NCBI GenBank assembly: GCA_964035545.1
Contig: OZ037772.1
Coordinates: 2,542,001 to 2,606,000 of the forward strand
Origin: Bugula neritina
Lineage: Eukaryota; Animalia; Bryozoa
DNA length: 64,000 nucleotides
Reading direction: 5' to 3'
Positions 29,168 to 56,203 of the stretch are shown here, in pieces. Each line of letters begins with the position of its first letter. Within the stretch, counting starts at the first letter, position 1. Below the pieces are notes generated by a model, which was not told the origin of the DNA, made no database searches, and was given only the letters and a program-made list of their open reading frames with translations. Both the position numbers and the translations under genes were made by a program.

Positions 29168-29620
29168 AACGAGGCCGCCCTCGATGAAAGAAGAAGAACT
29201 CAACGACTAAGACTCCTTATGAGGATACTCCAAAAGGAAGAATATCACCCAGCACTCTCTGCAGCGTATGATGAACTAATAAATACCCCGGAAAGTTTTA
29301 TCCAAACTAGGGCCCAAACACTAGGACAGCCAAGATCAGTCAGCACCAATAATAACTGCTATTATAACAGCTTCTTGCCACGGGCAATCCGTGACTTTAA
29401 AGGGAACAATCCTTGCAAGACTAATTTACACACAGAATAATCTAAACATTGACAGGTTAACTTACCTGTACTAATAAACAATATTGCAACACACACTGCA
29501 ACCAATTTATGGTCTATTGTATGCATTTTACTTTCTGACCAACCGTAAACATATGAGGCATGCCGCTTCTGTTACCTAGTGGTCTAGCATGATCGTAATC
29601 TGGAGGTAACTGGAGGTAAC
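29168..29620 (+). mobile_element. 3' fragment of a CR1-like LINE related to the 31601-35870 element
   Basis: ORF2 C-terminus (ERRRTQRLRLL...YYNSFLPRAIRD) parallels ERRQKCRIKLL...FHNSFVPRTIRD; ends in (TGGAGGTAAC)2. Confidence 0.85.
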
Positions 29621-29625
29621 TATCT

Positions 29626-34508: not shown

Positions 34509-34519
34509 TATTTGTTTAG

Positions 34520-35617: not shown

Positions 35618-38600
35618 TCGTTAACAGTGAATGAGCTTACGAGCGAAGGAACCGGAATTTAAGGTTATATTTTTGATTTTAGTTATCTAATATTTATATC
35701 ACTATGTATGAAGAAATTAGGCACGCCCCTAAAATGTAGGTAGATGGTCTAGCTACAGTTAATTTTGGACCAAAATTGGCATAGAAACTCAAATCTTACA
35801 GCAACAATTATACTTTTTAATTTTGAAAATACGTTAAATTGTTTGAAAGTTTAACTTTTGGCGTCCTCCATATTTAATTTTATATTAATAATGAATAAAA
35901 AATTATATCAACACTACAACTTACTACATCAAGATTGACGCATAGTATAATACACACTGGCACTGGTACTACAATAATAATAATAATATTCAGAAATACT
36001 TGAAGCATACAGAAAATGATAAAGCTGACGCAAGAGCCAAGACACACATACAATTAGAAAAGCAACCGCGTCGCTTTGATTAAAGCGATTTTCTATACTT
36101 TCATATAAGAGAGAAGTGAATGTATAGCGACTTAAAGAATCGCTAGAAGTTGTACCAAGTTTGGAGTCAGTGAGTGCAGCGTCATGAAGATGCAATAAAC
36201 CACTGAACCTAGTGGCTACCAACTTTGTGCTATTTCAAGTTGAATGCAACAAAAAGAACCCTAAATTATTACTCTGCGGGTTGATACGATAAGACTGACG
36301 ATCGAGTTTAGCAGATATATGTATATATATATATATATATATAAGGTGACAAATCACAGTCTTAAAAAATTAAGCGATTCGCAGTACTTTGCTTTTAAAA
36401 GTTTCAGTTTGCACACTGTGGTTAATACAATATATCTTTATTATTATATATCCCACTGAATTTGCAAATCACTACTAGTACTAAAATTGAAAAATAGTGT
36501 TGTATGTTATTAGGATACTGTCAGATCAGAAAATGCATAGTGTTTTGTGTTTTTGCAGAGTAGATACTGTACAATAATGTAATACATTTACAGAGAATAA
36601 TATGCTGGTAGTGATTATAGTTTAGTCAACAATTTGAGTAGGCTATGAGTGGTAAACAATTTACCAAGTAAATGTAACCTGATAAAGTGGTGGTAAACTA
36701 TAATTTAGTTCCTAGAAAGTCAGTTCTTGGAAAATATGCTATTCTTGAAACAGTAAATAATTGTAGATGTATGGGCTTTCTTCCTTTTTTTTATATGCTT
36801 AACTCTTACTTCTGTATTTCACAAGTTATACCTTTAAGATATTCCAACTTGCTGAATTATGGTTGCCGTTGGTACTGAGGCTTGCCTGCTTCCTTGAAAC
36901 TTCCAGTGAGATGACTGCTGTGACAGGTTGAAGTAACTATAAATTATTATATCTATTCCGTCACGGTATGTAGACTACACTGTATATCTACAAAATTCAA
37001 AAAAGAATGTGGAATACATATTCTGAAAGCAATGGACTTGAAACTTGAGTACTGCTGAAATTGAAATATGCAAATGAGCTAAGCGTCATGACACTACATG
37101 GAAATTGCTTCAAACATTAATATACTAAACGTATGATTTACAGCGCTTTGAATAATGCAAATGTAATATGCTTAGTAATATGGTATTATACAAGTAGTTG
37201 TGGTATAGGGACAATTTCATATACATGTTTTGTTCACGTGTTGGGATTTGTAAAATTTTAACCCCGTCTTACATGAACATTAATTGGTAAACAAACATGA
37301 ATAAAACCGGGACGTATATGATTATTCAATCATATTAACATATAGATGACATTTAACGTTTATTATATACTTGATGAATTATACAAATTTGATATAACCT
37401 GGTGTTTTACTTCACTTGTAGAATCTAATAACTACAAAATCAACACGTGAACAACTAATACGTATTAATATATTTTCTTGCTATAAAACATATATTTTAG
37501 GCTATGAGTTATGGCAGAAATAATGCTGGTATAACTTATTAGTCTTAGAGATCCTGATATGGTCAATACCGGGATGGTGTCACCAACAATTCCTCATGTA
37601 GCAGTTAGCACATTGTTGGACTTGAACCTGCGGACCAACCAGCAACTTACCTGGTTAGACTCATCGCCCAAACCTCAGAAATCCAAAACAACCCCACTAT
37701 AAAAGGCAGCTCAGAAGCCGCAATAGATTATCGACGATAAGAAGAGCAATTAATAATCAGAAGAGCCATAGTATATTTTTGTGCGAAATTATTTAGAAAT
37801 TCAATTACATTTAAACCTAATTAATTTTTGGACTGAGAAGTTTCATTGTAAGTAACTTGATTTATTTTCTTGTGATGTACTAATTTTATCTATTGTTTGT
37901 TTTATTACTATATAACTTGTACTTGTGAATTGAAAATCTACTTTGAAGTTGCATAAATTACACTTGAAGGAATATTTTTAAATTAAGAATTTGATTGAGT
38001 TACGTAGGTTGTTTGAGGAACTGTCTTAGAATTGTTTGATCTATTAAGTTACGCCAAATTTATGTTTAACAGGCTTATCAATTTTTGTTGCCATTATATT
38101 ATACACAGCGGGATTTCAAAGGGTCGCTAGGATATACATATATATTTGTTTCATTTCTTTTGGGTTTGGTTATTATAATAATTTTTCTTGTCTTATAATT
38201 TTGTTTCCATATTATTATCAAATAGATATTTTAAAACGCATGCAAAATCCATAGTTTTGTTCATTTCCGGAGAGGCAGGTCCTAAATTTGTCTCACGAAA
38301 TTTATAACCTGAGTGCTACCATTACACAATAACACATAGAACCACATATATTGTTTATACATAAATAATATTGCCAGACCAAACCATTAATAAACATTTG
38401 TCGAGCGGAGATAACTTTATATTTTTATTCTGCAGTTATTGGATTGCAGACACTAATTTCAAAGCAAAATTATTCAAGTAATATCTAATTGTTAATTGTC
38501 TCCCTTTGAATCAACCATCTAGTGAAAGGTTATTTGCATTCAAGTAATAAATAAATATACACATATTCCAACAAGTTTATAAATTATCAAATATTATTAA

Positions 38601-38802: not shown

Positions 38803-40072
38803 AATATATTAATATATTTATATATTTATATATTTATACTTATAGCGTATGTAGAATTGAAATATTATGTGGCAATGATGATAGCTATCATTATCATAAT
38901 CATTTCGTTTTGCCTTTTTAAGACTAGTCTTAACTAAAAACAAAAAAGTAAGAGCTCAGACTTACTACAGTTTCAGTTTGAGTTTTACTTTCAGTTTACA
39001 ACTTACTCTTAGAATAAGAGTTAGAGTTAGTGAGTAAACTTAGTTTTATCATATTGATTTTCACTTTAAATTGAACAGTTATCTAGTTGATATTCATATT
39101 GATATTGGTATTGGTTATGACATTCTGATAGTGATTCACTTCAAGTCAATAACTGACTCTAAGATAATCATAATGATTATCATTATGATAAACTTAGTCT
39201 TAGAGTTAGAGTTCATCACTTCTTGAGCACCAATTGATACTAATACTAGTAATAATACTAATAGTAATTAGTAATGCTGTGATAGTAATAGTAGTACTCA
39301 CTAATCTATTACCATCAGTACCAACCTTATCTATTAAGTTTAAGAATTATGATTATCTACTTCTAGTTCTAGTCTTTAAAAGTTGAATTATTATTGTTAT
39401 TATTACTAGTTTATATTACCAAGTTATATTGTAGTAATTTGTGCAATTACTGAGCGTGAGTTATTTACTTGCGTATAGTTAGCTGGTTATTCTGTTATCA
39501 ATTACTAAGGTAGCTGTCGAGTAATTATATTTATTATCCACAATAACGCATAAACCAAACATCACATCAAATTATCCTATACAAGAGTCAACTACTAACA
39601 CATGTTACTACTACAAGCCTCCGCTTACAACAACGTGATATAATCTTAATAACCCGGGAAGTGTCACGTGACTCGGAAGCATACCTTCCAGAGCTGCTAA
39701 TTGGTTGCTACATAAGAGTCTAAGTATTCCAGGAATAGGGAGAGGGCGATTCCTGTATTTGTACTTGCACTACTCACTACACCGTCCCCCCCAGCAGAAA
39801 GCCCTACTTTCTGATAACACAATAAAAAAAACATAATGAAAAACCATACAATAATCCAAAAAGGAAAATATACATAAGTAAACCCACAAGGAGTAAGAAA
39901 AGAAATAGTTAAACACGACAACGTTTACATTAGAAGACAACAGGGTGATCGATCACACACATCTAGTCAGCTATTAAGAGAGAGGGTGCTTACCAGCACG
40001 CGGGCCAATGTCGGAGCGCTCGTCACATTCCAAACGAGTATCGCTCAACGAAGGTGCCTACCCCAGGCATTC

Positions 40073-41119
40073 TCATTGGTTAGGCTCTGATTCTTGTAGC
40101 GACCGTGCTCGGTGTCGAGCCTGTCGGGCACGTAGCCGCCTCTTCAATCGCCCCACTGAGTCCTTCAACTGGTATAGACCTGTCGTCGTATCCAGCAGGT
40201 CAGGGGCAAGTTGTGTGAACTCGGCTTGCAGTCTTAGAAGCCGCTCTTCTACGTTAGCCAGCTGGCTAGGCCTTGGAGGGGTTGTAGGGGTCTCCGTTAG
40301 ACGGGATATGGTTGTTTCTTCTACTTCTGGGGTGTTGCTAGGGTTGACCGGGGTAGGAGGTGGGCCCTGAACCATAGGGGACTTATGGCGGGCAGATAGT
40401 AACAGTACGTGAAACCCTGACGTTAGTGCGGCCAGGGTAATAGCCTTCCTGATGACTGGTTTGATGGCATCCAGGTATAGGGGGAAACTGTCTTCATCAA
40501 CAGTGTGGTTCTCTCCGGCGAAGCAGCTTAGCTAATGTACTGTCACGGGATACGGGTAGACGTCATGGAACCCGCAGGGACAGAAGTGGAGTAGGAAATG
40601 GGCATCTACATGTAAACGCAAGGAGCGGTGCGACGGGCACTCCTCAAAGCAGACCTGGCAGGTTCGGTGTGGTCCCTTGGGCCCCAGGCTTCTTCAATTC
40701 TCCTCTCTGTCGTGGGTGACACCCAACGGTGTCGTCGGCGGAGTACTACTGGTATGCCATTCTCCATTACAGGCTCTTCTTCCATAGACAGAGAGGTTGG
40801 CTGGTCCCGTGACCGGGAGGTGGTCACTCGAGTATGATCTGAAAGAGTAGCAGTGTTAAAGGTTATACACTGAGACACCGTCGGCGTGTACAGCCTGACC
40901 GGTACTCTGTTCAGTTACACTCGTGAGATTCAGGCTAATGAATAGTTGATGGAAAACACACTCGCTATGATAGATTATTTAAAATCAAAGTCGACGTGTA
41001 TTCCCACCACTGTTTATCATTATCGAATCTCCAGCTAGCTAGTGTAGCTGACTGATGCAGTCTAGTTATCGTACCAAAAACATAATTAACTCACCCTTCG
41101 ATCCAGAATAGTAAGACAT
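40073..41119 (-). pseudogene. Element A ORF3 (two exons: 41119-41095, 40838-40073), inactivated
   Basis: Homologous to B ORF3 (CQVCFEECPSHRSLRLHVDAH, FCPCGFHDVYPYPV, VEERLLRLQAEFTQLAPDLL); frameshift near 40665 and TAG near 40533. Confidence 0.8.
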
Positions 41120-41142
41120 TTTGGAATGAAAGTGGTAACTGA

Positions 41143-43401
41143 TTACTGTTTACTGGCACGTCTACTCTCGACTGCATCAACATAGGAAAAGACCGGACAG
41201 CGTGGTTGTGAAACGTGACTAGGGCTTTTCACTTCCAGCGGATGAATCTCGTGTGAGATTCCGCCGAGGCAAAAGTTGAGATTCTCGTGGTGATCACAAC
41301 TCCCACGGCTCTTTGCCTGCTTTCCCATGCGAGGCCTCTCTAGACTTTTGTTACTGCCGCTTATACCGCGGTCACGTACACAGTCTCTGAGACACGCTGG
41401 AAGTTGCCTAGTGTGTGGTGTTGGTCCTATGTTGGCATCTCCTTGCGGAGCCCCTCCCACGGGGGGTTTTTGCACTTCCGGACCTGTTTCTGGTTCCGGA
41501 AGTGGTGATGATGGCAGGCTTGACGTTGGGGGCGGTGGGCGCACTTTCAAGGACGGAAGTGGCCTTTCTCGCCTCGCCAAGTCTTCCTGACGTGTCATGG
41601 AGGTGTTTCCGGCCAGGTTGACAGTCTCCGCCCGCCGAGACCTTCTCGCACAATGCGTCTGCCGCCCCGCTTCACCAGGGAGACGGCTATGCTTGTTGGT
41701 CTGGCAGACTTTGCACCGTCTCACTCTGCGTCGGATATCCCGTTCCATGTTAGGCCAGTACCACCGGAGTTGTAGCTTGGTGACCACCCCTTGGACTCCT
41801 CCGTGAGTCTCCTCGTGAGTGTCTTGTATCAACTTCCGGCGGATGGCAACTGGGCAGACAACCCTCTTCCTGGCTGGCTGTCTGCTGTTGGTGGCCAAGG
41901 TCATGGTTAGCAGACCATCTGGCCCGACCCGCAGAGAGCTCCAACGTTGACAGTACAGTCGTAACTCGGCGCATCCCTGTCGCCGTTGTGTACTACTGGG
42001 TCGTCGCCCCTCCTGTTTCGCTCGGTACACGTCGGCTACCACCCCAGGAAGGCATTCCTGGAGCTTCGGCAGCTCCCTAACGTTACCAGCCCATACAGGT
42101 TTGGCGCGGAAGCTCTGGGCAGCCTCCGGGGGCGTGTCAGCCCTCTGTTGAAGTGGCTGAGCAGGGGCAGTCCTCGCCGCCCGTGGTACCTCACGGCAGC
42201 CTGCTCTATTTAGGCGGGCTCCGTGGTTTGTGTGGCCGAACGCCTCACTGTACCCATGTGGCAACCTAGCCATAGCCTGGCGCTTTCCGTTGCCTGTGCA
42301 GCCACGCGTCCCTGGAGGAGGGGAGGCGTGGGTTGGGACGGTCCTCCGCCCTCGAGACGGGCTCTGCTGAGGACCTTCCGTCGTAGCTCCCGACGACGGC
42401 CCAATGGCTTCCTCCTGGACAGGATGGAAGCGACCCAGCATGGATCTGGGTGGTAGGTCTACTGTCTCTGAGAAGGGGTTGACACACTGCACTGAGATCT
42501 CTCCTTGTCCCGTGAGCCGGCTAAAACTACGGGCAAGTTGGACTCTCGAGTGCGTACTTTCGACAACTCCCAACTTAGAGGTTTGGCCACCGTCTACCTT
42601 GCAGTGGACGGTAGCCCGGGAGTGGCCTGGTATAGTACAGCTCCGTACTACCTGCACTGCTCCCGCTAGAGGACGACCAAACTTATCGACACAAGCGAGC
42701 TCCTTGTCGCCCATGATTATCGCAGATTTACTGAAATCGATGCGACAACCGTGTCGTTGTAAGAATGGCATCCCGAGGATAGCATCCTCGTTGAGCTGCC
42801 CGACGATAAACGTCTCTTGGATGGCCTGGTTACGGACGTAACCAGTTAGCTCAATAATGCCGTAGAAGGGAATGCACGACCCGTCTGCCAAGGTGCCATG
42901 ATCCCCCTCGTACGGTGCCAACCTGTCCTTGACCTTAGCGCTGAGGGTGTCAAAGAACTGACGGCTAAGGAGGTTGGTGGTGCAGCCGGAGTCCAGGAGG
43001 AAGTTGGCAGGCTTGCCGGCTAACTTCCCTGGCAGGAAGTAGCTACTTCCGTGCGGCTGCAATTGAGTGTGCCGTGGTTGCACCTCCCTCGCTGTGGGTC
43101 GAGGGGTCCACGGTTGGCGGCGACTATTGACCAGCTGCCGAGGTTGGGGCGGTACGCCTTGCGGCGCTTGTACCGTTTCCCTCGCAGGCTCTGTGGTCAA
43201 CCGTCTGCCGGCTCCGTGTTGGTGCCGGAGTGGCGTAGAGGACCCAGGCGGCGAGTGGCTTGAGCCTACTCGCCGCGGGGGTCGCCACTTCACAGCATCT
43301 CCGCGCGGCGCCCAGCGGGGCGACAGATGCGCGGGCCTCCCTGGGTGATTCACAGACGGCCCGCAGGAGGTGGGAACATCTGCGGGCCGGGGTAGTTTAA
43401 C
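41143..43401 (-). CDS. pol: Element A truncated Pol (protease + integrase HHCC region; RT, RNase H and IN core deleted in frame), -1 frame to gag
   Basis: LLDSGCT protease motif and HEETH...CKVC present; no YxDD or DDE; colinear with B Pol except two large deletions. Confidence 0.88.
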   Translation of the reverse strand, partial: VKLPRPADVPTSCGPSVNHPGRPAHLSPRWAPRGDAVKWRPPRRVGSSHSPPGSSTPLRHQHGAGRRLTTEPARETVQAPQGVPPQPRQLVNSRRQPWTPRPTAREVQPRHTQLQPHGSSYFLPGKLAGKPANFLLDSGCTTNLLSRQFFDTLSAKVKDRLAPYEGDHGTLADGSCIPFYGIIELTGYVRNQAIQETFIVGQLNEDAILGMPFLQRHGCRIDFSKSAIIMGDKELACVDKFGRPLAGAVQVVRSCTIPGHSRATVHCKVDGGQTSKLGVVESTHSRVQLARSFSRLTGQGEISVQCVNPFSETVDLPPRSMLGRFHPVQEEAIGPSSGATTEGPQQSPSRGRRTVPTHASPPPGTRGCTGNGKRQAMARLPHGYSEAFGHTNHGARLNRAGCREVPRAARTAPAQPLQQRADTPPEAAQSFRAKPVWAGNVRELPKLQECLPGVVADVYRAKQEGRRPSSTQRRQGCAELRLYCQRWSSLRVGPDGLLTMTLATNSRQPARKRVVCPVAIRRKLIQDTHEETHGGVQGVVTKLQLRWYWPNMERDIRRRVRRCKVCQTNKHSRLPGEAGRQTHCARRSRRAETVNLAGNTSMTRQEDLARRERPLPSLKVRPPPPTSSLPSSPLPEPETGPEVQKPPVGGAPQGDANIGPTPHTRQLPACLRDCVRDRGISGSNKSLERPRMGKQAKSRGSCDHHENLNFCLGGISHEIHPLEVKSPSHVSQPRCPVFSYVDAVESRRASKQ

Positions 43402-44300
43402 CCTGGTGGGAGTTGAGGGCAGTTTCTCTGGAAATGTCCTGGCCTTCCGCATTCCCAGCAGAAGTGGTGCCCCATGCCTGGTGATTGTACCTGCGGCCCG
43501 CAAGGCTCACGGGCAGTATCTACCTGGCTTGGGGAGGCTAATGTGGTGACCAGTTTATCTAGCATGTCAGTCATCTGTGAGATTTTTGACGCTAGTGACA
43601 TCTGGTTCACACTAGCCACCGCGGAGGGTTCCGCATTTAATTCGGTGTGAGCAGTAGAGTGCTCCGTGGTCACCTGGCGGGAGGCCACGCGGTTGCGGTG
43701 CATATGAGTCGCCAAGAGATAGGCTTCTCCCACCGCAAGTGCATCTTCGACTGTGGTGACTCCCCTCGCTTGGAGTTGATGGTGGAGCCCCAAGTCGTTG
43801 ATGGACTGCACGAAGGCATCATAGGTATACCTCTCACAGTGTACCGGAGGCAGATCGCGGAATGCAATCTGCGCTAATGGGTACACCGTGGCAGCGTGCT
43901 CTTCTAGTGACGTGTGAGGATCACGCCGCATCCTCTGTAGACGGGCCCGCGCATCTATGGGAGAGATGCCAAAACGGGCCCGCAGGGAAGCAAAGATTCC
44001 GTCTATGTCAGGTCCAGCTCCGTACGGCTTAGCTTTGCCCGTCAACGCCATCCTGAGCTTTAGCAACGCCACCCTTGGCGGCCATTCTGTAATCTCCATC
44101 ACATCCTGGAATTTTTGGATGAACTGCTCCACTGCTTCTTCGCCAGTGAAGTTGGGCGCCTTCAGCCGGTATCTATCTTCACCATGCTCTCTAAGAATTC
44201 TCACTTCTTCATCTAACACCACTGGTTCCACAGGTATATCAACATTATCTCTCTCACCTTCATTCAGTGGAATGGGTAGCTCCGTGCCGTCTTCTGCCAT
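43350..44300 (-). CDS. gag: Element A Gag (ATG at 44300, MAEDG...)
   Basis: Zinc knuckle CWECGRPGHFQRNC; homologous to element B Gag. Confidence 0.92.
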   Translation of the reverse strand: MAEDGTELPIPLNEGERDNVDIPVEPVVLDEEVRILREHGEDRYRLKAPNFTGEEAVEQFIQKFQDVMEITEWPPRVALLKLRMALTGKAKPYGAGPDIDGIFASLRARFGISPIDARARLQRMRRDPHTSLEEHAATVYPLAQIAFRDLPPVHCERYTYDAFVQSINDLGLHHQLQARGVTTVEDALAVGEAYLLATHMHRNRVASRQVTTEHSTAHTELNAEPSAVASVNQMSLASKISQMTDMLDKLVTTLASPSQVDTAREPCGPQVQSPGMGHHFCWECGRPGHFQRNCPQLPPGLNYPGPQMFPPPAGRL

Positions 44301-45315
44301 GACTGCTATACGCAAGATCCCACCGCTGCCACCACTGTAGTAATTTGTGCAATTACTGAGCGTGAGTTATTTACTTGCGTATAGTTAGCTGGTTATTCTG
44401 TTATCAATTACTAAGGTAGCTGTCGAGTAATTATATTTATTATCCACAATAACGCATAAACCAAACATCACATCAAATTATCCTATACAAGAGTCAACTA
44501 CTAACACATGTTACTACTACAAGCCTCCGCTTACAACAACGTGATATAATCTTAAAAACCCGGGAAGTGTCACGTGACTCGGAAGCATACCTTCCGGAGC
44601 TGCTAATTGGTTGCTACATAAGAGTCTAAGTATTCCAGGAATAGGGAGAGGGCGATTCCTGTATTTGTACTTGCACTACTCACTACACCATTACTAGTGT
44701 TAGATTACCACAATGTAATAGTGTTATAATTTTCAGATTTAGGGTTGATATGCTATCCAGAGAGTCTATTTATCTCGTATAGAACTGCACCAGGCTAAGT
44801 CGAGTGAACGAGTATATTTTATACACAACTATACATTATAAAAACACGATACATTATTTCTAACAAGTTACACATCTAATCTATTTCACACTCTAGCTTC
44901 GACTGGGTTAGCAGCGGGAAACTACAATTGCTGCTAACTATCAACTACGCTAATTGGCTATCCACTGTTCCGGGTCAATTACGCGACCCTACATGTTGTG
45001 CTGCTGGTAGTTCCACGAACCACCACACCGCCCCCACCAGCAGAAAGCCATCTTTCTGATATATATATAAAAAACACATTCAATAGTAATTGCATACATC
45101 AGTGGACAAAAATAATACATAATATACAGGAAGAGACATAATAATAGACAGAGTCGTTATAACGATCCGTTGCATACAATTGGCCAGCTGTAGATAGACG
45201 AGGAATACTAGCTAGCTGTGGTATTAGACAAGGAATAACCTGTCTAGCAGTTAAGCATTTGCACAATTTTGGTTCCTCACCAAATGTGGAGTTGTGGAGT
45301 ATTCTGGGTAGCATA

Positions 45316-46392
45316 CTAGAGTCCTTGTTGGGCACGCTGGTGCTTGGCTTGGCATGTATGCAGTTTCCGTTTCATACGGCATACGGATCCCTTCAGCTGG
45401 AAGAGTCCTGTGGTAGTGTTAAGTAGATCCGGTGCCAGCTGGGTGAACTCTTCTTGTAATCGTAGGAGGCGTTCTTCTACTGTAGCTAGTCGTACTGGGT
45501 CTGGGGACGGTGTCCGTCTGCGGCGTAAGGGTGGACTGGGGGACCTGGTCCGTCTCTTCGCCGGGGTAGGGGAGATCTCTCCTTCTTCTGGATATGTAGT
45601 TTCCTCGGGGGTGTATGTAACTGGAGGGCGGTCAGACACCAGCGGGGATTGTTGGCGGGCGTTGTCTAACACACGTTGGAACCCCGAGGATAGAACGGCT
45701 AATAGCATGGCCTTCTTTACCAGAGGTCGTATATACGTGAGGAACTCCGGGTACAGCTTAGCGTCGACCACATAGTTTTCTCCAGGGAAACAGCCCGCCG
45801 CTCTGTGTCTGGTGACGGGGTAGGGATACACATCATTGTACCCGCAGGGGCAGAAGGTCAGTAGGAGATGAGCATTGACGTGTAGTTTAAGGGAGCGGTG
45901 AGAGGCGCAATCTTCACCACAGATCTGGCATCTCGTCCGTCCTCTGGACCCCCAGGCTGTTTCTATTTCTTCTTCGGTTTGTGGAGACACCCACCGCCAA
46001 CGGCGGCGTAGTGGCTCAGGCCGGTCACCACTAGCATAGTCCTCCGGATACGGAGCGGGAAGTGTTCTATCCCGTACCCTGGTTGTAGCGGGTCGAGTGT
46101 AATCTGAAAAAGTTTCAACAGTGTTAGTATAGTACACTGCTGTGTTGTCAGCTTGAACAGCTTGGCAACTCCTAATTCAGTTACCTCGTAGAGATTAATG
46201 ATAGTGAATAGTCAGATAGAACCGTATTGCAATGAGATTATAAAAATCTCTAAGTCAAACTGAGTTCTTACTACGGTATTTCACTAACCTATCTCCAGCT
46301 CGATTGACTCAGTGAGTCAGAGCTGAGCGATGCAATCTAGTTTCGTATTAAGATATAGTTAACTCACCCCACGATCTGTTGTCGTAAGACAT
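45316..46392 (-). CDS. Element B ORF3: spliced accessory protein of 270 aa (exon 1 46392-46368, intron 46367-46104, exon 2 46103-45316) with zinc fingers, Arg/Ser-Pro tract and coiled coil
   Basis: ATG TCT TAC GAC AAC AGA TCG TGG G|GTGAGT ... TACTAAC ... TTTTTCAG|AT TAC gives an in-frame product; the same exon structure is present in element A. Confidence 0.8.
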
Positions 46393-46416
46393 ACTGAATA
46401 TGTGAAATGGTTTGAA

Positions 46417-49400
46417 CTACTGCTTAGAAACACGTCTACTCTTGACTGCATCAGCGTATGAAAAGATCGAGCAACGTGGTTGGGGTGCGTGATTAAGACT
46501 TTGTGCACCCAGCGGATGAATTTTGTTTCTATTTCTGCCGATACAAAAGTTGATATTTCCGTGGTGTTGACAACTCCCACATTTGCTCGATTCTTTTCTC
46601 GTACGGTTTTCCCCTAGACTTTCATGTGTGCCGCTTTTAACGCAGTCACATACGAAGTCTTTCAAGTATGCGGGGGGTTGCCTCGTACGCTGTCCCCTTT
46701 CTAGGGGGGGTGACACGCTTGCCGGTTCGTTAGTAGGGGCCTCTAATGGCGTCTCTACTTCACCGTCCCCGGTCACCTCTTCTTGTTCTCCGGATGGAGC
46801 CCCTCCCTCCGTGGGGGTTTGCACTTCCGGAACCGGCTCGGTTTCTGGAAGTGATGGAATTAGACTTGGCGGTGGCGGACACGCTTCTGTTGACAAAAGC
46901 TGCCGCTCCTCTCTCACCAAGTTTTCTTCCCGCGGTATGACCACTTCGTATTCAGGTCCATGCCGCCGTCGCCCGCGCGTTGTTGTCTGCCTCCTGGGCT
47001 CTAACAACGGGGGGGCTTCTCCCACTCCGCCGGGGCTAGCCCAATACGGTTTCAAGCGAGACTCATTCTGGATAGACACCTGTCCTGAGCGCTCAATCTT
47101 GTACGTATGATTGGGCATAGCCTCGACGACCACGTAGGGGCCTACGAACTTAGGCTTCAGCTTATCAGCCTGTCCGCGGCGCCTACGGTAATTGACCATC
47201 CACACCTTATCTCCCCTTTGATAGAGGGGTGGTTCATCGGAATCTTCGTGCCGCACCTTCCACTGCTGTTGACGCAGTATCTCGTGTGCGGCCTTCATCC
47301 GTTCCACTAGTTCACTGGCATACTCATGGACTGAGTTATCCTGCTCTGGAACGTGATAGGTGAGATGGTCAGGGACACGAGTCTCCCTCCCGAGCATCAA
47401 GAGGTTTGGGGTCTCACCAGTACTGGTGTGTGGGGTGCTACGGTATGCACGCATGACTTGCGGCAACACCGTATCCCATTCCTCTTGACCTCGTCCAAGG
47501 AGGAGACTCCGGAGTGCATCACCTAGCATCCGGTTGTTGCGCTCCACCACCCCGTTACCTTGAGGGTGGTAGGGGGTGGTCCTGCTCTGATTTACTCCCC
47601 AGAGGTGGCAAAGGTCGCTCATCAGTTGAGACTGGAATTGAGCGCCTTGATCAGAGTGTATCTGTTCGGGGAGCCCAAAATAACAGAATACATGTTGGTC
47701 TAGTGCCCTGGCCACTGTTGGGGCTGATGCATCTGGGATAGCCAGAGCATCCGCCCACCTAGTAAAGTGGTCGGTTAGTACTAGGATCCAATTATTGCCT
47801 CTGGGGGTCAGGGGCATGGGTCCGACCAGGTCTACAGCGACTACTTGCCAGGGCCTGCCAGCATATAGCCTCCGCCGTCCTGCTTCACCAGGGGGGCGGC
47901 TATGCTTACTGGCCTGGCAGATCTCACACTGTTTGACTCTGAGCCGGACGTCACGCTCCATCTGCGGCCAATACCACCGGAGTCGTAATTTGGACATCAC
48001 TCGCTTGACCCCTGCGTGGGCCTGCTTGTGAGTATCCCAAATCAACTCACGGCGGATGGCTGTGGGGCAGACTACCCTCTTCCTTTCCGGGTGTCTGCCG
48101 CTGGCAGCTAGAGAGATGGTCAGTAACCCATCCTGCCCGATCCGCAGCGAGTCCCAACGCTGACAGTATAGCCGGAACTCGGCGCATCCCTGTCTTATGC
48201 GTTCCTCGCTGGGTCGTCGCCCTTCCCGTTTGGCCCGGTATATGTCTGCCACGACTCCAGGCAGCTCTTCTTGGAGCTTCTTCAGCTCTCGAACATTACT
48301 GGCCAGTACAGGGTTGGCGCGGAGGTTTTGCACATCCTCCGGGGACTCATCAACTCTTTGCCTGAGTTGACCTTGGTCCCAGTCAAACGGTGCTCCGTGA
48401 TGAGCCAGCGCTTCCAACTCGCATCGTGGGGGACCTCCATCCCTCCTCTCGATGTTGAGACACTGTTTGCAACCTCCGTCAGGTCGGCGACTCAACCCAA
48501 CCGCATTGCTGTGTCTCTTGCCCGGTCGATGTTCGATCCGGTATGAGAATTCAGCTAGGATTTCGAGCCACCGGGCGACCTGACTAGAGGGCTCTGCTCT
48601 CCTGCACAACCAGATCAGCGAGGCATGATCCGTACGCAGCCGGAACTTCCTGCCATATAGGTATGGTCTGAAGTGCTTCACTGACTTGATTACTGCCAGC
48701 AGCTCCTTGCGGGTAGTGCAGTAATTTCGTTCAGCGGGAGAGAGAGACTTGCTGTAGTAGGCTACTACTACCTCTCGGCCTTCCTGCACTTGTGACAACA
48801 CAGCGCCAACATTCTGGTCACTGGCGTCCGTGTCTAGGATGTACTCCAGAGTGGGGTCTGGGTAGGCCAAGATGGGCGCCGTTAGTAGGCAGCCCTTGAG
48901 GCGGTCGAATGCTTCTTGTTCGACTGGAGTCCACTGCCACGTCACTCCCTTTGCGGTAAGCCGGTTTAACGGCTGGGCTATGCCCGCAAAGTCTGGTATG
49001 TATTGCCTGTAATACCCTACCAGCCCCAAGAAAGCCCGGAGTTCGGTCAAGTCTTGGGGGGTGACCCAGTCTTCTACTGCCCGTACCTTTTCGGGATCCG
49101 TCGCCACGCCGTTTCGACCGACAACGTGCCCCAGGTACTTGACCTCCGGCTGCAACAGAGCGCACTTGGAAGGTTTGAGCTTAAGACCGGCACCTCGGAG
49201 TCTCTCGAAAACCTCCTGCAGACGACTGACATGTGTCTCGAAGTCTGGAGAGATTACGATGACATCATCGAGGTAGACCAGCAGTGTCTTCCAATGGAGT
49301 CCGCTAAGGACTTGTTCCATCAGCCTCTGGAAGGTGGCTGGGGCGGAGGTTAACCCGAAGGGCAGCACCTTCCACTTCCACAAACCGTCCCGTGTGATAA

Positions 49401-50985
49401 ACGCCGCTTTCTCTTGGGCGTCGGGACTCAGAGGAACCTGCCAATAGCCGCTTAGCAAGTCTAACGTACTGAAGTACTTGCTGCCGGCTAGGGCGTCCAA
49501 TGACTCGTCAATACGAGGTAGAGGGTAGGCGTCCTGTATGGTTACGCTATTGAGTTTGCGGTAGTCTACACAGAACCGCCAACTGCCGTCTTTCTTCCGG
49601 ACCAGTACGACTGGCGAGCTCCACGCACTATGGGCGGGCTCTATCAGTCCCCGGTCCAGAAGATCCCGTACTTGTCGGCTAACCTCCTTCTCTTTCTCCG
49701 GCCCCAGCCTGCGTGTGGGCTGCCGGACAGGGACTGTCCCTGCAGTCAGCGGTATTTCGTGTCTGACAATTCCAGTCAGTCCCACGTCATGCTCTCCGCT
49801 GCTGAACACATCACCGTAATCGCGTAGTAACTTAGCCATAGCTTGGCGTTCTCTGTTACTCGCGCAGCCGCCACTGGCTGTTTCGTATAACTCCCGGAGA
49901 TGTGTTGGGACTGCCCCTCGTCCCTGAATAGGGTGTCGAGGGAGTGCCTCTGTCGCATCACCCAGTGACGGGCCTACGTCTCCCTCCTGAACAGAGTGAA
50001 AACGGCCCAGCATCGACCCAGCTGGGAGCTTGATAGGCTCGGTAAAGGGGTTGACGCACTGCACTAAGATCTCCCCTTGCTCAGTCAGCTGATTCAGACT
50101 GCTGGCAAGTTGGATCTTTTCGTGCGCGCCTTCAACCACCCCGAGTCCAGAGATCCGGCTACTATTCACCCTGCAGTGAATGGTAGCTCGGGAGCGGCCT
50201 GGTATGGTACGGTTGCGTACCACTTGCACACCTCCCACTAAAGGGCAGCCGAACTTGTCGACGCAGGCGAGTTCCCGCCTGGACATCATCATTGCAGATC
50301 TGCTAAAATCTATGTGACATCCGTGCCGTTTAAGGAACGGCATCCCGAGGATAGCATCCTCCTTGAGCTGACTGACGATGAACGTCTCTTGGATCGTTTG
50401 ATCGCGGACTCGTCCCGTCAGCTCAATTATACCATAGAAGGGAAGGCACGACCCGTCAGCTAGGGTGCCGTATTCCCCTTCGTATGCTTCCATCTCGCCC
50501 CTGACCCTAGCACTGAGGGTGTCGAAGAGTTGGCGGCTTAAGAGGTTTGTGGTACAGCCCGAATCAATGAGAAAAGTAACAGCTTTGCCTTCCAGTTTAC
50601 CGGGCAAGAAATAGCTGTTCCAATGGGGCTGCACCTGAACTCTCCCTTCAGGCCTTACTCTCGCAGGGAGTACCTCCCTCGCTTTGGGTCGCGAAGGAGG
50701 TCTCTTGGGGCGGTGATAGGTAGGCCTCGGGGGTGCCGAGACTAGATTCTCAGCTACCTTTGTGTGCTCCCATCCAGATTCTTGGACTTGTAGCCCTGTG
50801 AATCTGTTGTGAAGGGGCATAGAAAAGGCAGCCGCGGGGCGAAGCCCCTTGCTGGTCCGTCGTGGCTGTTGCCACTGTTGGTTGCCAGTACGCGGTACCC
50901 GTCTGGGTGACCTGCGTTTCTTCTTCCCTAGAGGTTTCGTCGGCCCGCGGAAGGTGGGAACATCTGCGGGCCGCGGTAGTTTAAC
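46417..50985 (-). CDS. pol: Element B Pol polyprotein PR-RT-RNaseH-IN, probably expressed by -1 frameshift
   Basis: IDSGCT, RFCVDYRKLN, LPFGL, YLDD, TDAS/TDH, HKQAH...CEIC, D-D-E (VDL, SDQG, VER), GPY motif; Gypsy domain order. Confidence 0.97.
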   Translation of the reverse strand, partial: VKLPRPADVPTFRGPTKPLGKKKRRSPRRVPRTGNQQWQQPRRTSKGLRPAAAFSMPLHNRFTGLQVQESGWEHTKVAENLVSAPPRPTYHRPKRPPSRPKAREVLPARVRPEGRVQVQPHWNSYFLPGKLEGKAVTFLIDSGCTTNLLSRQLFDTLSARVRGEMEAYEGEYGTLADGSCLPFYGIIELTGRVRDQTIQETFIVSQLKEDAILGMPFLKRHGCHIDFSRSAMMMSRRELACVDKFGCPLVGGVQVVRNRTIPGRSRATIHCRVNSSRISGLGVVEGAHEKIQLASSLNQLTEQGEILVQCVNPFTEPIKLPAGSMLGRFHSVQEGDVGPSLGDATEALPRHPIQGRGAVPTHLRELYETASGGCASNRERQAMAKLLRDYGDVFSSGEHDVGLTGIVRHEIPLTAGTVPVRQPTRRLGPEKEKEVSRQVRDLLDRGLIEPAHSAWSSPVVLVRKKDGSWRFCVDYRKLNSVTIQDAYPLPRIDESLDALAGSKYFSTLDLLSGYWQVPLSPDAQEKAAFITRDGLWKWKVLPFGLTSAPATFQRLMEQVLSGLHWKTLLVYLDDVIVISPDFETHVSRLQEVFERLRGAGLKLKPSKCALLQPEVKYLGHVVGRNGVATDPEKVRAVEDWVTPQDLTELRAFLGLVGYYRQYIPDFAGIAQPLNRLTAKGVTWQWTPVEQEAFDRLKGCLLTAPILAYPDPTLEYILDTDASDQNVGAVLSQVQEGREVVVAYYSKSLSPAERNYCTTRKELLAVIKSVKHFRPYLYGRKFRLRTDHASLIWLCRRAEPSSQVARWLEILAEFSYRIEHRPGKRHSNAVGLSRRPDGGCKQCLNIERRDGGPPRCELEALAHHGAPFDWDQGQLRQRVDESPEDVQNLRANPVLASNVRELKKLQEELPGVVADIYRAKREGRRPSEERIRQGCAEFRLYCQRWDSLRIGQDGLLTISLAASGRHPERKRVVCPTAIRRELIWDTHKQAHAGVKRVMSKLRLRWYWPQMERDVRLRVKQCEICQASKHSRPPGEAGRRRLYAGRPWQVVAVDLVGPMPLTPRGNNWILVLTDHFTRWADALAIPDASAPTVARALDQHVFCYFGLPEQIHSDQGAQFQSQLMSDLCHLWGVNQSRTTPYHPQGNGVVERNNRMLGDALRSLLLGRGQEEWDTVLPQVMRAYRSTPHTSTGETPNLLMLGRETRVPDHLTYHVPEQDNSVHEYASELVERMKAAHEILRQQQWKVRHEDSDEPPLYQRGDKVWMVNYRRRRGQADKLKPKFVGPYVVVEAMPNHTYKIERSGQVSIQNESRLKPYWASPGGVGEAPPLLEPRRQTTTRGRRRHGPEYEVVIPREENLVREERQLLSTEACPPPPSLIPSLPETEPVPEVQTPTEGGAPSGEQEEVTGDGEVETPLEAPTNEPASVSPPLERGQRTRQPPAYLKDFVCDCVKSGTHESLGENRTRKESSKCGSCQHHGNINFCIGRNRNKIHPLGAQSLNHAPQPRCSIFSYADAVKSRRVSKQ

Positions 50986-51887
50986 CCCTGATTTAGGAAG
51001 GGACAATATCGGCGGAAATGTCCTTGATTTCCGCACTCCCAGCAAAAACTGACTGTTTCTCCCTGTGGCGGCGCCGATGGCCGCATGGGCTCAGGGGCGG
51101 TACTCACTGGGTTTTGTGGTGTCAGTGTTGCTATCAGCTTGGCTAGCATGTCCGTCAGTTGAGTGACTTTTGATGCTGTCGCCAACTGGGACACGGCAGC
51201 CGCGGCGGGGGTTTCCTCCCCTTGTCCCGCGGCCGTGTCTGCGCGGTCTATCTCCACTTGGCGGGAGCTTCCGCTACTTTTATGCATTTGGTTAGCTAGG
51301 AGGTAAGCTTCCCCCTCAGTCAGAGCATCTTCAACGGTGGTGACTCCCCTAGCTAGAAACTGGTGGTGGAGACCCAGATCGTCGACAGATGCTATGAAAG
51401 CGTCGAGGGTGTACTTCTCGCGGTTGACTGGGGGCAAGTCGCTGTACGCGATCTGTGCCAGCTTCATGACCGCGGCGGCATGCTCCCGCAGCGGGGTGCG
51501 GGGATCACGCCGCAACCTCTGCAATCGGGCCCTGGCATCTGTAGCAGAGAGGCCAAAGCGGGCCCGCAGAGAAGCAAAGATATTATCAATGTCTACGCCC
51601 AGCCCATAGGGCTTGGCTTTGTCCATCAATGCCATTCTAAGCTTCAACAGGGCCACCCTAGGGGGCCACTGAGCGACGTCCATTACGTCGCTAAACTCTT
51701 GGATAAATTGTTCCACCTCCTCTTCACCCGTGAAGGTGGGCGCCTTTAACCTGTAGCGGTCTTCAGCTAGTTCTCGCGGAACCCTTCGCTCTTCTACTAC
51801 ATGGTTAACAGGCATTGTCTCTACAGCATTGTCTCTACGCTCACCTTCGATTTCCGGTGGTTGAGTTCCAGCATTTTCAGTCTCCAT
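50928..51887 (-). CDS. gag: Element B Gag (319 aa)
   Basis: CCHC knuckle CWECGNQGHFRRYC; directly follows the PBS. Confidence 0.95.
   Translation of the reverse strand: METENAGTQPPEIEGERRDNAVETMPVNHVVEERRVPRELAEDRYRLKAPTFTGEEEVEQFIQEFSDVMDVAQWPPRVALLKLRMALMDKAKPYGLGVDIDNIFASLRARFGLSATDARARLQRLRRDPRTPLREHAAAVMKLAQIAYSDLPPVNREKYTLDAFIASVDDLGLHHQFLARGVTTVEDALTEGEAYLLANQMHKSSGSSRQVEIDRADTAAGQGEETPAAAAVSQLATASKVTQLTDMLAKLIATLTPQNPVSTAPEPMRPSAPPQGETVSFCWECGNQGHFRRYCPFLNQGLNYRGPQMFPPSAGRRNL
50941..50985 (-). promoter_or_regulatory. Putative -1 ribosomal frameshift signal (G_TTA_AAC + GC-rich hairpin); equivalent site at 43357-43401 in element A
   Basis: Lies in the gag/pol overlap; heptamer and CGGCCCGC/GCGGGCCG stem are conserved in both elements. 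Confidence 0.75.
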
Positions 51888-52754
51888 CTTGGATGCACTA
51901 TCCCACCGCTGCCACCACTGTTATAATTTTCAGATTTAGGGTTGATATGCTATCCAGAGAGTCTATTTATCTCGTATAGAACTGCACCAGGCTAAGTCGA
52001 GTGAACGAGTATATTTTATACACAACTATACATTATAAAAACACGATACATTATTTCTAACAAGTTACACATCTAATCTATTTCACACTCTAGCTTCGAC
52101 TGGGTTAGCAGCGGGAAACTACAATTGCTGCTAACTATCAACTACGCTAATTGGCTATCCACTGTTCCGGGTCAATTACGCGACCCTACATGTTGTGCTG
52201 CTGGTAGTTCCACGAACCACCACAATAGTATGTCTTACCAGTGATAAAGCTGCTAGATGAAAGAGACCGTTCACTCTGTTTGTCTGGGTTTTATCTGCCT
52301 TAGCTTGTAGCTATCTCAGCTATACGGTGGCTGGTAGGGCAACTCTTAGTAACACGATAGCTCAAGTATCTGATAGGCTATTGTCATTAGCTAAACTCTC
52401 AGCGTACCACTATAACATGCCCCCTTCCAATAAAGGCTGGTGACCACCTGCTAAAACTAAGCATTTCAATTACATACTATTTCTAAAAGCTATAAGCTGA
52501 TGAGTACCACATGTCTGTGGGTAAACTTACTCACCTCTATATGCCAGAAACTGTAAACACAAGCTTTAACTATTTGTAATTTAGTAGTTTGCGAGTCAGT
52601 GTGTCGTTGAGTGTGTGAGTAAATAAGTAGGTGAGTAAGTTAGGTGAGTAGGTTGTTTAGTGTGTCGGTAAGTGTGTAAGTAAGTGAGTTGGGATCGGAG
52701 GATGTTCCCACCCTCTTCTCCCTCAGTCTCAGTTGCCTGAGACTGACCAGAACC

Positions 52755-53760
52755 TCAATGCAGTGCTTCGGGATTAGAAGATGTTTCCATCTTCACCTCC
52801 CCAGTCTCAGTTGCCTGAGGCTGACTAGGACTGTAGGTCGGTCTCAGACCAAGGTCTGAACCACCATGTACACCGGGGGTCTGGGGCTCTACGGCCATTG
52901 ACTCCTCCCAAGTGTCGTCCCGAGGGCGACCTGGGGTCGGCGACTCCTCTACGGCCTTTGACTCCTCCTGGTTACCACTGGGACCTTCCGCAACTGTGGT
53001 TGCAGGGTTTAGTATTGTGCTACCCAACCCTCTGGAATGCACGTTGGCCACGCTGGCCCAGTTTTCGATTGCTACTTTAATAGCCATTGAGCACTGATAC
53101 TCCTCACTGATCTCTTCCATTTGCCTGTTGAACTTTCGTTGAAGTTCTTGCTTTTCTCTATTTAATTCCTCTTTCCTTAGTGCATAAGCCTCCCCATCCA
53201 GGAAGTCGCACCCCGTCAAGCCATTCAGGAACCCTGAAACTTCACTGACAATAACATTTTTAGGCTTTAATGCATGAACATAGCTTGATGATGTAGCTAC
53301 ACCACCAGAGGCAACACTTGCATAGTTTGATTTCTGACTACCTGAAACCTTGGCTAATTTTGGTGCTGGATCTTGAAAGTCAACACCATCAACAGCCTTC
53401 CGCTTGAAGCTAGAAGGTGCGTGACTACAGTCTGAGGTTTTGTGTTCGGCTGCGACACAACACCAACTGCAATAGACTTCTCTGCAGTCCTCCACCCAAT
53501 GACCCTTCTGCCCACGCCTGTAACACTTATTATTGGGACAGTCTTGGGCAGAGTGATCCCTGAAGCATCTACAGATGGCACACCTAATTGTGCCCTTGTT
53601 GCCACATACCTCATGTGGCTTCTTAAGCTTAGCCTTATCTTCTGTATTCTTGGGCTTACCCTTTTACCGTTTCTTTATGTCTTCCTGAGGGTCCGGCTTT
53701 AGACCAAGAGTCCATGTCGGGTTCCCCTATACCTTCCTTCTCTTTCTCACTATTGCTCAT
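52755..53760 (-). pseudogene. Element C second ORF: triple zinc-knuckle + coiled-coil protein, one frameshift near 53663
   Basis: CAICRCFRDHSAQDC, CYRRGQKGHWVEDC, CSWCCVAAEHKTSDC in one frame; the ATG at 53760 joins this frame if one A in GTAAAAGGG is removed. Confidence 0.65.
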
Positions 53761-53949
53761 TGTTTGTCTCTTTCTCTATCTATATATTGTTTTTCTCAAG
53801 TTTTCTAAAACGGTATCTATAAAAACACATTATTATTTATACCTCTGCATGTTTAGTCTATTAGGAGGTTTGCTTAGTCTCCCCCGTCTAGTATGCGTAA
53901 TTTCTCCTTGTTCAGGAGGAAATAACTTGCTGTCATTGCCATCATATAG

Positions 53950-55158
53950 TCAGCTTGCAAATCTGACTTTCCTATAACCCTTATTCCTATCACTACTCCC
54001 ACTACTTGACCTATAAGGTTTGGTCTCCCTTTCGGGGCAATCTTTAGTGGTGTGCCCTCGACAGTTACATACGAAGCACCTTACATCAGGGCAGTCCCTA
54101 ATTCTATGATCATGTTTTTTACAATGATAGCAAAGATTTCCTTCTCTTCTAGGGGAGCTAAACTTTTTAGACCTAGAATGATAGTAACCCGAATTCAGTC
54201 TATCTACGAGAGGTTTTTCATCCCTCCTCCTTCGTTGGCTTGAACAGAATTTATCCCTACTATTGTAATGTCGTTTACTATGATCATCAGAGCTATTACT
54301 AGATCCACTCGAGCTTCTACTTCTATAGTGGTCACTATTCCTAAGGCTACTTCTCAAATAAGGTCTCCACTTTATTCTAGATCTCGAAACCCTATTAACA
54401 GAATAACTGTCACAGGTGTCACTGCTACTGTTTCTAGTCTGCTTAAGAGAACTTACAGCCCCGACTTCTTGTTTGACGTCCACTATTGTCCTAGCTTCAT
54501 TTAAAAGTAGGTCTGAGTCTCTAGCTAGCTTTTTTGCTTTAAGCTTGGTATTTAAGTCGTCCCAGGATAAATCGGGTTCTTGCAATAATTGTCTCCTAGC
54601 ATTAGTATCGCGCAAGCCATTTACTGCTAAGGCAACACTAAGTCTCCTTCTAACATCCTCGGTCCCAGCACCTAAACCTAATTCTCTACTAAGTTTTTCT
54701 ACTCTCAGCAAGTATTCTCTTTCATCCTCATCAATGGCCTGTGACACTGTCACAAACCTCATTGTTTTAACATAAAAGCTATCTGACCTATCATAGTGGC
54801 CCCTAAGTAGACCTAATGCTTGCTCATAGCCTTCATTCCCATTGTTTCTCAAATCAAAGCCAAGAGATTGTAACGTGGCTCTACCATCATTGCCTATTGC
54901 GCTCAACAATGCTAACAACTTAGTCCTACCTCTAAATTTATTTACTTCTACACCCTCCACTGTCTTTTTTCCCAGATTCAAAGTAGTTAACTCTACTGTT
55001 ATCTCAAATTGAGCTAGCCAATCATTCCATGATCCTGTCACATCATTACAATTCAATTGAAGTCTTGGAAATAAATTTAAATCCATGACTTTGTTGTTAC
55101 AATTCCCTGTGCTACAAAGGTTACTACTTGTACTAGCTTGGAGCCTTGATTTACTCAT
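53950..55158 (-). CDS. gag: Element C Gag (402 aa, Mag-like) with two CCHC knuckles
   Basis: W..W..QFE N-terminal motif; CYHCKKHDHRIRDC and CFVCNCRGHTTKDC. Confidence 0.88.
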   Translation of the reverse strand: MSKSRLQASTSSNLCSTGNCNNKVMDLNLFPRLQLNCNDVTGSWNDWLAQFEITVELTTLNLGKKTVEGVEVNKFRGRTKLLALLSAIGNDGRATLQSLGFDLRNNGNEGYEQALGLLRGHYDRSDSFYVKTMRFVTVSQAIDEDEREYLLRVEKLSRELGLGAGTEDVRRRLSVALAVNGLRDTNARRQLLQEPDLSWDDLNTKLKAKKLARDSDLLLNEARTIVDVKQEVGAVSSLKQTRNSSSDTCDSYSVNRVSRSRIKWRPYLRSSLRNSDHYRSRSSSGSSNSSDDHSKRHYNSRDKFCSSQRRRRDEKPLVDRLNSGYYHSRSKKFSSPRREGNLCYHCKKHDHRIRDCPDVRCFVCNCRGHTTKDCPERETKPYRSSSGSSDRNKGYRKVRFAS

Positions 55159-55294
55159 GTGTTATGTCAAGATGCCAATCACAAAATATCTTAAACACTG
55201 AGTATCACTGTTTCGGTCACTTGTTGTAAATGACTGTAGTATCACAGTTGCCAGCTGTGAATCACGATATCAAATTACGATTATCACTCATTAG

Positions 55295-55558
55295 ACTACA
55301 CTAACGATAACACTACACTAACAATAACACTACACTAACAGTAACACTGCACCAACAGTAACACTGCACCAACAGTAACACTGCACCAACAGTAACACTG
55401 CACTACACTACACTACACTACACTACACTACACTACACTATACTACACTACACTACACTACACTACACTACACTACACTACACTACACTACACTACACTA
55501 CACTACACTACACTACACTACACTACACTACACTACACTACACTACACTACACCACAC
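55295..55558 (+). repeat. (CACTA)n microsatellite and 17-bp ACACTGCACCAACAGTA repeats in element C leader
   Basis: Directly visible. Confidence 0.95.
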
Positions 55559-55906
55559 TTATATTATTATATTATATTCAAAACACTTGCAACTGATAAT
55601 GATTAATTGAAGAAAGTACTTATCTATCATCTATAGTTGTAAGGACAGAAAAAGTTTCTCACTGGCAGGTTCGTTAAAATGCTGACTGCGCCATGTTAGA
55701 TTACCACAATGTAATAGTATGTCTTACCAGTGATAAAGCTGCTAGATGAAAGAGACCGTTCACTCTGTTTGTCTGGGTTTTATCTGCCTTAGCTTGTAGC
55801 TATCTCAGCTATACGGTGGCTGGTAGGGCAACTCTTAGTAACACGATAGCTCAAGTATCTGATAGGCTATTGTCATTAGCTAAACTCTCAGCGTGCCACT
55901 ATAACA

Positions 55907-56203
55907 ACTAGGTTATGTTACCAAGTTATATTACTAGTTTATGTTACCAAATTATATTACCAGGTTATTTTACCAAGTTATATTACTAGTTTATGTTATC
56001 AAGTTATATTACTAGTTTATGTTACCAAGTTATATTACTAGTTTATATCACCAAGTTATATTACTAGTTTATATTACCAAGTTATATTACTAGTTTATAT
56101 TACCAAGTTATATTACTAGTTTATGTTACCAAGTTATATTACTAGTTTATATCACCAAGTTATATTACTAGTTTATATCACCAAGTTATATTACTAGTTT
56201 ATA
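55907..56203 (+). repeat. Minisatellite of about 27 bp (ACCAAGTTATATTACTAGTTTATATT); its first unit lies at about 39400-39429, left of the LTR nest
   Basis: Tandem copies; the same unit flanks element A on the left. Confidence 0.9.

Follow-up and report, generated by a model that had tools for sequence, protein, structure and literature searches.

The introns of the plant LTR elements Ogre and EVADE lie within gag-pol. Among LTR retrotransposons, sense introns and conserved extra ORFs can be maintained (PMC12786077; PMC7264820); the sense extra ORFs described there after pol are env-like, and none of those described carries the domain analysed here (PMC7264820). Sense introns and spliced third genes have been published for Gypsy/LTR elements (PMC10309623; PMC12992720; PMC12786077; PMC7264820). 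Cer1, a Ty3/Gypsy element of C. elegans, encodes CERV, a protein of 517 aa that is assembled from five exons, comprises H, M and G domains and acts on the unspliced RNA of its element; no homologues outside nematodes are reported (PMC10309623). A review singles out CERV as the one spliced export protein known for a retrotransposon (PMC12786077). In Drosophila errantiviruses, env-F is described as a third ORF spliced to a short upstream exon, which lies inside gag in the idefix subclade (PMC12992720). Access to the donor of MLV is reported to be limited by an upstream stem-loop, so that unspliced RNA persists (PMC2794156). How LTR elements keep intron-bearing genomic RNA while making spliced accessory mRNAs has been worked out for few of them.

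The window analysed here, a stretch of 64,000 nt of Bugula neritina DNA (contig OZ037772.1, positions 2,542,001 to 2,606,000), contains two related elements, A and B, with a third gene, ORF3, after pol (Table 1). Like CERV (PMC10309623), ORF3 is a non-envelope gene that follows pol and is probably joined to the Gag N-terminus, by a donor termed D1 in A and B and in the single protein record P0024; this likeness is one of layout. Unlike CERV, ORF3 has 270-276 aa, two exons and a C2H2 plus C2HC-type domain that is fused to Pol in relatives, and A and B possess a second, AUG-bearing micro-exon just past the pol stop, with a donor termed D2. ORF3 resembles env-F in being a third ORF spliced to a short upstream exon (PMC12992720), but it has zinc fingers and no transmembrane segment, and one donor lies after pol instead of in leader or gag only. 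The A/B family is a compact case: two donors share one acceptor, and the predicted structure spans 365 nt. Our searches of the openly available literature, with look-ups in PMC8556966, PMC6238403 and PMC13524379, returned no description of the ORF3 domain, its fused and split states, a post-pol micro-exon or the structure. Within that literature the zinc domain, its two states, the micro-exon and the conserved structure are new; spliced third genes are known. At a probability of roughly 0.42, we favour a reading in which ORF3 is a selected non-envelope accessory gene, likely spliced by two first-exon routes, that arose as a split Pol tail and acts on unspliced RNA.

Table 1. Features of the window, with positions counted from its first nucleotide
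Feature	Position	Strand	Remarks
Element B	52224-44722	-	young, intact Ty3/Gypsy element; LTR pair identical
B 5' LTR	51919..52224	-	306 nt, TG...CA, identical to 3' LTR; CTAT target duplication
Primer-binding site of B	51900..51917	-	same in A and B
B gag	50928..51887	-	319 aa counted from AUG; CCHC knuckle motif
B first exon, route 1 (gag codons 1-14 plus G, 43 nt)	51839..51887	-	phase-1 donor D1; intron from 51844
B pol frame	46417..51090	-	protease, RT, RNase H, integrase (H2C2, core, SH3); Gypsy order
B pol amber stop	46419-46417	-	
Conserved predicted RNA structure	46095..46460	-	stop, AUG and D2 enclosed by long hairpin 46452-46329
Further predicted stems in B	46325-46296; 46295-46191; 46184-46099	-	last stem pairs the acceptor
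B first exon, route 2 (AUG micro-exon)	46368..46392	-	25 nt
B intron	46104..46367	-	264 nt; donor D2 GTGAGT; TACTAAC 46129-46123; acceptor TTTTTCAG
B ORF3 exon 2	45316..46103	-	261 aa downstream of split codon
ORF3 zinc domain	45637..46044	-	C2H2 finger, then C84 C86 H99 C104
ORF3 C-terminal long helix (predicted coiled coil)	45322..45498	-	pattern of purifying selection
B 3' LTR	44722..45027	-	purine-rich tract directly upstream
Element A	39430..44689	-	non-autonomous relative of B; LTRs 99.4% identical; gag present
A gag codons 1-14 plus G, with donor D1	44252..44300	-	intron starts 44257
A micro-exon	41095..41119	-	
A intron	40839..41094	-	256 nt; acceptor at 40839
A ORF3 exon 2	40073..40838	-	frameshift near 40660 in the window's copy
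Element C	52224-55906 and 44698-44721	-	LTR element distinct from A/B; CTAGT duplication; no pol
C gag-like ORF	53950-55161	-	
C second Cys/His-knuckle ORF	52755-53663	-	
LINE	31806-35620	-	endonuclease and RT split by a stop; Cys-rich ORF1 upstream
Further RT fragment	29588-30508	+	
17-nt satellite, two long arrays	12153-14364 and 61350-63104		arrays in opposite orientation

Layout and splice sites of elements A and B

Element B has the hallmarks of Ty3/Gypsy elements: TG...CA LTRs, a target duplication, a primer-binding site, a polypurine tract and the order protease-RT-RNase H-integrase. Its primer-binding site presumably matches tRNA-Leu. No Pfam match above cut-off was obtained for its gag. 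A and B share the motif GTTAAAC at the gag-pol overlap (50979-50985 in B; near 43400 in A), which we take to be of the -1 frameshift type, and the most stable folding window of B (z -8.1) lies directly after it. Motif and downstream fold are likely a frameshift signal. Gag identity between A and B is 64%, and their LTRs are unrelated (alignment score 108, no higher than the best shuffled score of 108). The pol frame of A has 787 aa; two large deletions (41143-43506) have removed its RT, its RNase H and the core of its integrase. Both deletions preserve the frame to the natural stop, for which the chance is about 1 in 9, and this may be a sign that it is important to translate as far as the micro-exon.

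A preliminary description of this DNA had proposed for B a micro-exon with a GTGAGT donor, a 264-nt intron with TACTAAC and a 270-aa spliced frame, and every coordinate proved right. The spliced frame comprises 270 codons with one stop, and the intron contains stops in all frames and is more conserved between A and B than are synonymous sites. The same layout, exon and 256-nt intron alike, was confirmed in A, but ORF3 of this copy is frameshifted. Other details needed revision. The pol stop and the micro-exon AUG, given as about 25 nt apart, are separated by 24 nt in B and by 23 nt in A, and the AUG is in frame with pol in B only. The B intron does contain a perfect TACTAAC, but B has four copies of this motif, and no perfect branch point is present in A. 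That no AUG precedes the zinc fingers is correct for B, in which 45316-46176 has no in-frame AUG before 45708, but not for A, whose exon 2 has in-frame AUGs at 40785 and 40767, nor for many homologues. The hexamer GGTGAG occurs just twice in A, both times at a site homologous to a B donor. A possible acceptor just upstream of the micro-exon is not conserved (CAG in B, CAA in A), which weakens the idea of a splice at that point.

In the public run X2, one contig skips exactly 40839-41094, the intron of A. Among the 15 joints listed of 85 in this run, the A joint is the best supported and alone has canonical ends. Its short side, 29 nt, is at the tool's caution limit, and it matches the prior prediction exactly. 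The micro-exon intron of A is spliced out. The corresponding B junction, 46368-46103, was not among the 15 joints listed of 85, so that the predicted removal of the intron is borne out by reads for A and not for B. The RNA run X1 gave no joint; its share is small (0.15, 25 contigs) and uninformative either way.

The intron-less form of A has a depth of 843 in X2, compared with 4,576-16,013 at points within the A intron. How these depths are to be read depends on whether X2 is DNA or RNA. A longest contig of 59 kb, coverage of all 30 bins and depths of 118-128 at 8 of the 14 other listed joints suggest genomic DNA, the depth being a weak point since the joints listed reach down to that depth only. 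If X2 is DNA, intron-less retrocopies of A exist as a minority and most copies keep the intron, which would favour unspliced RNA; on that condition the earlier proposal of its selective use stands. If X2 is RNA, the A joint is a spliced transcript.

The micro-exon retains its AUG, 25-nt length, phase and GTGAGTTAA between A and B, although four-fold sites are merely 30-54% identical. Splice-site conservation at the DNA level is that of two sequences, A and B, and it is supplemented by proteins that read through the acceptor. Such read-through, as S/D, L/D or S/G, accounts for 27 of 30 pattern hits among homologous proteins, the other three being P0024 and two chance matches. The residues are compatible with a kept YAG, as judged from the proteins. 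Locus scans of metagenome contigs confirmed 0 of 180 pattern matches, and those of viral contigs found nothing. None of the 193 proteins examined begins with the micro-exon peptide.

A second first exon had been overlooked. In both elements gag codon 14 is followed by D1, AAG/GTGAG, and in A as in B the phase of D1 is the same as that of D2, phase 1. Splicing from D1 to the ORF3 acceptor in B would remove a 5,741-nt intron and yield a predicted 276-aa Gag14-ORF3 product. The homologue P0024, a single record known from protein alone, matches the Gag start of A at 12 of its first 14 residues and then continues directly into exon 2. Two other JGI calls, P0025 and P0029, read through intron sequence, indicating that the JGI caller models no introns and that the join in P0024 is likely present in the contig itself. 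As this contig is 5,320 nt long, against about 1,840 nt for D1-spliced A, it is likely a retrocopy with flanks. ORF3 is therefore likely made by splicing two alternative first exons onto one acceptor. The intron of the preliminary description is real and its ORF3 is a gene under selection, but its micro-exon is only one of two first exons, and D1, the Pol-fused domain of relatives and the common A/B intron fold were absent from it. A gag-5' donor joined to the ORF3 acceptor is the ordinary env/CERV subgenomic layout, already published (PMC10309623; PMC12992720), so there is no paradox in a Gypsy element having a sense intron.

Predicted RNA structure between the gag donor and the ORF3 acceptor

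Within the intron, A and B agree at 64-71% of interior positions, with an alignment score of 164 where shuffled sequences reached 75 at most. This exceeds their identity at four-fold sites in gag, protease, integrase and ORF3. Folding of the pol tail together with the intron gave z values of -6.4 and -5.3 in the two elements. Folded independently, A and B have 58 pairs in common, 7 of them compensatory, in a comparison of two sequences. Neither value was reached in block shuffles (0/299 and 0/302, together 0/601), whose maxima were 25 pairs and 4 compensatory. In each element the D2 GU and the acceptor CAG lie in predicted pairs, with p>=0.97. The conserved stems are thus predicted to pair both the donor and the acceptor of the micro-exon intron. 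This pairing is not exceptional locally, as 13-46% of 9-mers are equally buried. No Rfam family matched the structure of the intron region.

Structured windows (z<=-2) made up 41/56 and 19/32 inside the D1-spliced stretch, compared with 1/14 and 1/15 outside. Coding segments of gag-pol share 23-49 pairs between A and B and exon 2 shares 0-4; the antisense strand shares 46. Ordered RNA structure spans gag-pol (46104-51844 in B; 40839-44257 in A) and is absent from the LTRs and ORF3 exon 2. The idea that a short transcript from an internal start would free the donor was weakened, its unpaired probability rising only from 0.12 to 0.32 in B and remaining within 0.17-0.29 in A. The arrangement differs from that of MLV (PMC2794156) in that masking in A and B is predicted only, extends to an internal donor and to the acceptor too, and is found in a retrotransposon.

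The ORF3 protein and its Pol-fused relatives

Searches with ORF3 gave 72 close homologues and 104 representatives at E<=0.001. When A and B are compared, codon positions 1/2/3 have identities of 0.67/0.75/0.40 over the zinc domain and of 0.78/0.82/0.32 over the terminal helix, and 14 of 47 four-fold sites are identical. By this codon pattern, ORF3 is a gene under purifying selection. The first finger, C-x2-C-x12-H-x3-H (C58, C61, H74, H78), is the only one of classical C2H2 form; C84, C86, H99 and C104 follow, and W37, V112 and D113 are conserved. PF00096 was matched in 6/74 and PF13894 in 8/74 members at E<=0.01, with SALL/ZBTB matches, and the domain has no Pfam family of its own. AlphaFold modelled the N-terminal zinc domain with a pLDDT of 93 and a pTM of 0.86 from a 74-sequence alignment. 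The full-length model was poor (pLDDT 59), with a long C-terminal helix predicted. No Foldseek hit to the zinc domain was obtained at E<=0.001 (best Z 3.7), viral structures gave no clear match, and the Atlas search returned generic C2H2 leads only; the weak sequence and fold matches are to tandem DNA-binding C2H2 fingers. This absence of a clear fold match does not establish a new fold. A crude export-signal pattern hit ORF3 only within the zinc domain. The stretch RRRWR, which we take to resemble the basic motif of Rev, is not kept across homologues, which weakens the comparison with Rev.

Named homologues come from the bryozoans Watersipora subatra and Bugula neritina and cluster with the B domain at a support of 0.96. 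The gene models of these species that carry the domain are P0079/P0168, P0126 and P0170; it occurs twice in P0079/P0168 and in P0108. These four entries may be domesticated genes or mis-annotated element genes. In P0163/P0174 a single ORF combines protease with the ORF3 domain, and Pfam detects neither RT nor integrase; by this predicted content they are a second kind of non-autonomous element. The locus adds a confidently modelled zinc domain without a Pfam family that is present also in bryozoan gene models.

A profile search located the zinc domain in frame at the Pol C-terminus in at least 30 of the 120 Pol relatives ranked best; this count is a minimum, as the domain is also present in members of three clusters that had been labelled unfused. 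The domain lies 391-1078 aa behind the RT-integrase core in these fused relatives, which are known as predicted proteins, not DNA, and the fused tails examined mostly end in a helix-like stretch. An alignment-based search for the domain in longer proteins gave 0 of 3,736 candidates and was insensitive, since the profile search found fusions. In B the domain is not in frame behind integrase, a stop and an intron lying in between. B nests among the fused forms in a 120-row FastTree phylogeny (P0239 left out) and in an IQ-TREE phylogeny of 40 of the 120 rows. Pol and domain distances correlate across 30 fused elements and B (rho 0.69, 0/2000 permutations). Fusion in relatives together with this co-divergence indicates that ORF3 is likely an old Pol-tail module, of zinc-finger and coiled-coil type, that was separated from Pol in the lineage of B. 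Such fission of a Pol tail is a plausible route to an accessory gene, and both states can be compared. Chromoviral chromodomains are integrase C-terminal targeting modules and offer a parallel, since there too a whole clade has an accessory domain at the end of Pol. The ORF3 domain differs from them in its fold, its far longer linker and its separation from Pol.

Possible roles of ORF3 and the remaining features of the window

A CERV- or Rev-like action of ORF3 on the unspliced RNA of its element is our tentative preference by analogy, favoured by the CERV-type layout, the structured intron and the retention of ORF3 in integrase-less elements. The full-length RNA, structured from the gag donor to the acceptor, would likely stay mostly unspliced, with the stems over D2 and the acceptor holding it in this state so that most new copies retain the intron. 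A spliced fraction, from D1 (276 aa) or D2 (270 aa), would make ORF3. Translation of the D2 message might use an internal start, re-initiation 24 nt past the pol stop or, in B, read-through of the amber codon. ORF3 could then oligomerise via its helix and bind the structured, intron-retaining RNA; as a nucleic-acid-binding protein of the nucleus, it would protect or export the unspliced RNA of its own element. The Pol-fused form is hard to accommodate as a Rev-like factor because Pol is made from unspliced RNA, unless relatives express the domain separately. That the weak resemblances of ORF3 are all to DNA-binding C2H2 fingers speaks against an RNA role. In a bolder version, which we regard as unlikely, a wide, undescribed invertebrate Gypsy clade carries the zinc domain on its Pol tail, and one lineage turned it into a Rev-like spliced gene with an RRE-like RNA that buries the splice sites and is recognised by the ORF3 protein. 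Regulation of the complex-retrovirus type would then have arisen independently, through gene fission, and the fused and the split state would both survive today.

It is somewhat unlikely that ORF3 is instead an integration tether, a DNA- or chromatin-binding module carried on the integrase tail in relatives and made as a separate protein here, or in B supplied by amber read-through on D2-spliced RNA. Such a role accounts for the Pol fusion better than does a CERV/Rev-like one, and the co-divergence with Pol and the matches to tandem DNA-binding fingers agree with it. So do the B micro-exon AUG, in frame with pol and separated from it by a single TAG, and the insertion of A and B about 32 nt apart at the end of element C. 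However, A and P0163 retain ORF3 although they lack RT and the integrase core, so that a function dependent on the element's own integrase is less likely; the linker to integrase amounts to hundreds of residues, and the A spacer is out of frame.

The preliminary description proposed splice regulation as in a complex retrovirus, with ORF3 as a regulatory gene; splice control could instead, by analogy with the simple retrovirus MLV, be purely structural. We consider it quite unlikely that intron retention is left to RNA structure alone in this way while ORF3 binds DNA and serves its own LTR as a transcription factor or an anti-silencing factor. The C2H2 finger, basic patch and coiled coil would suit such a factor, and related stand-alone domains occur in bryozoan gene models. 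The LTRs of A and B are unrelated, so each might need its own factor, and structure-based attenuation of a 5' splice site is described for MLV (PMC2794156). The Pol-fused state is left unexplained by this proposal.

Very unlikely is a minor or cryptic micro-exon donor, with ORF3 produced from the gag donor or the exon-2 AUGs only and the intron serving as a packaging, promoter or stability element. The exon-2 AUGs of many homologues, the lack of a micro-exon-peptide start among the 193 proteins and an intron interior conserved beyond the needs of splicing are in its favour, but they are outweighed by the preserved micro-exon in diverged elements and by the D2 junction of A, the best supported of the 15 listed joints. 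An envelope or fusogen is highly improbable: ORF3 lies where env would be expected and, as with env of the idefix type, its splicing starts in gag (PMC12992720), but, as the preliminary description held, it is non-env, having no membrane segment (maximum 19-residue hydropathy 1.24; only 4/72 homologues exceed 1.8), a zinc-finger fold and no viral glycoprotein match at E<=0.001.

The surroundings of the two elements are rich in other insertions. B is nested inside the 3' LTR of element C. Three insertions fall within about 32 nt (44689-44722), adjoining a 26-nt tandem array (55907-56203). The 5' end of A has two extra G and a duplication of 2 nt only, which looks like imperfect integration. Element C itself has an intron-like stretch just before its 3' LTR, running from GTGAGT at 52534 to TTTTAG near 52451.
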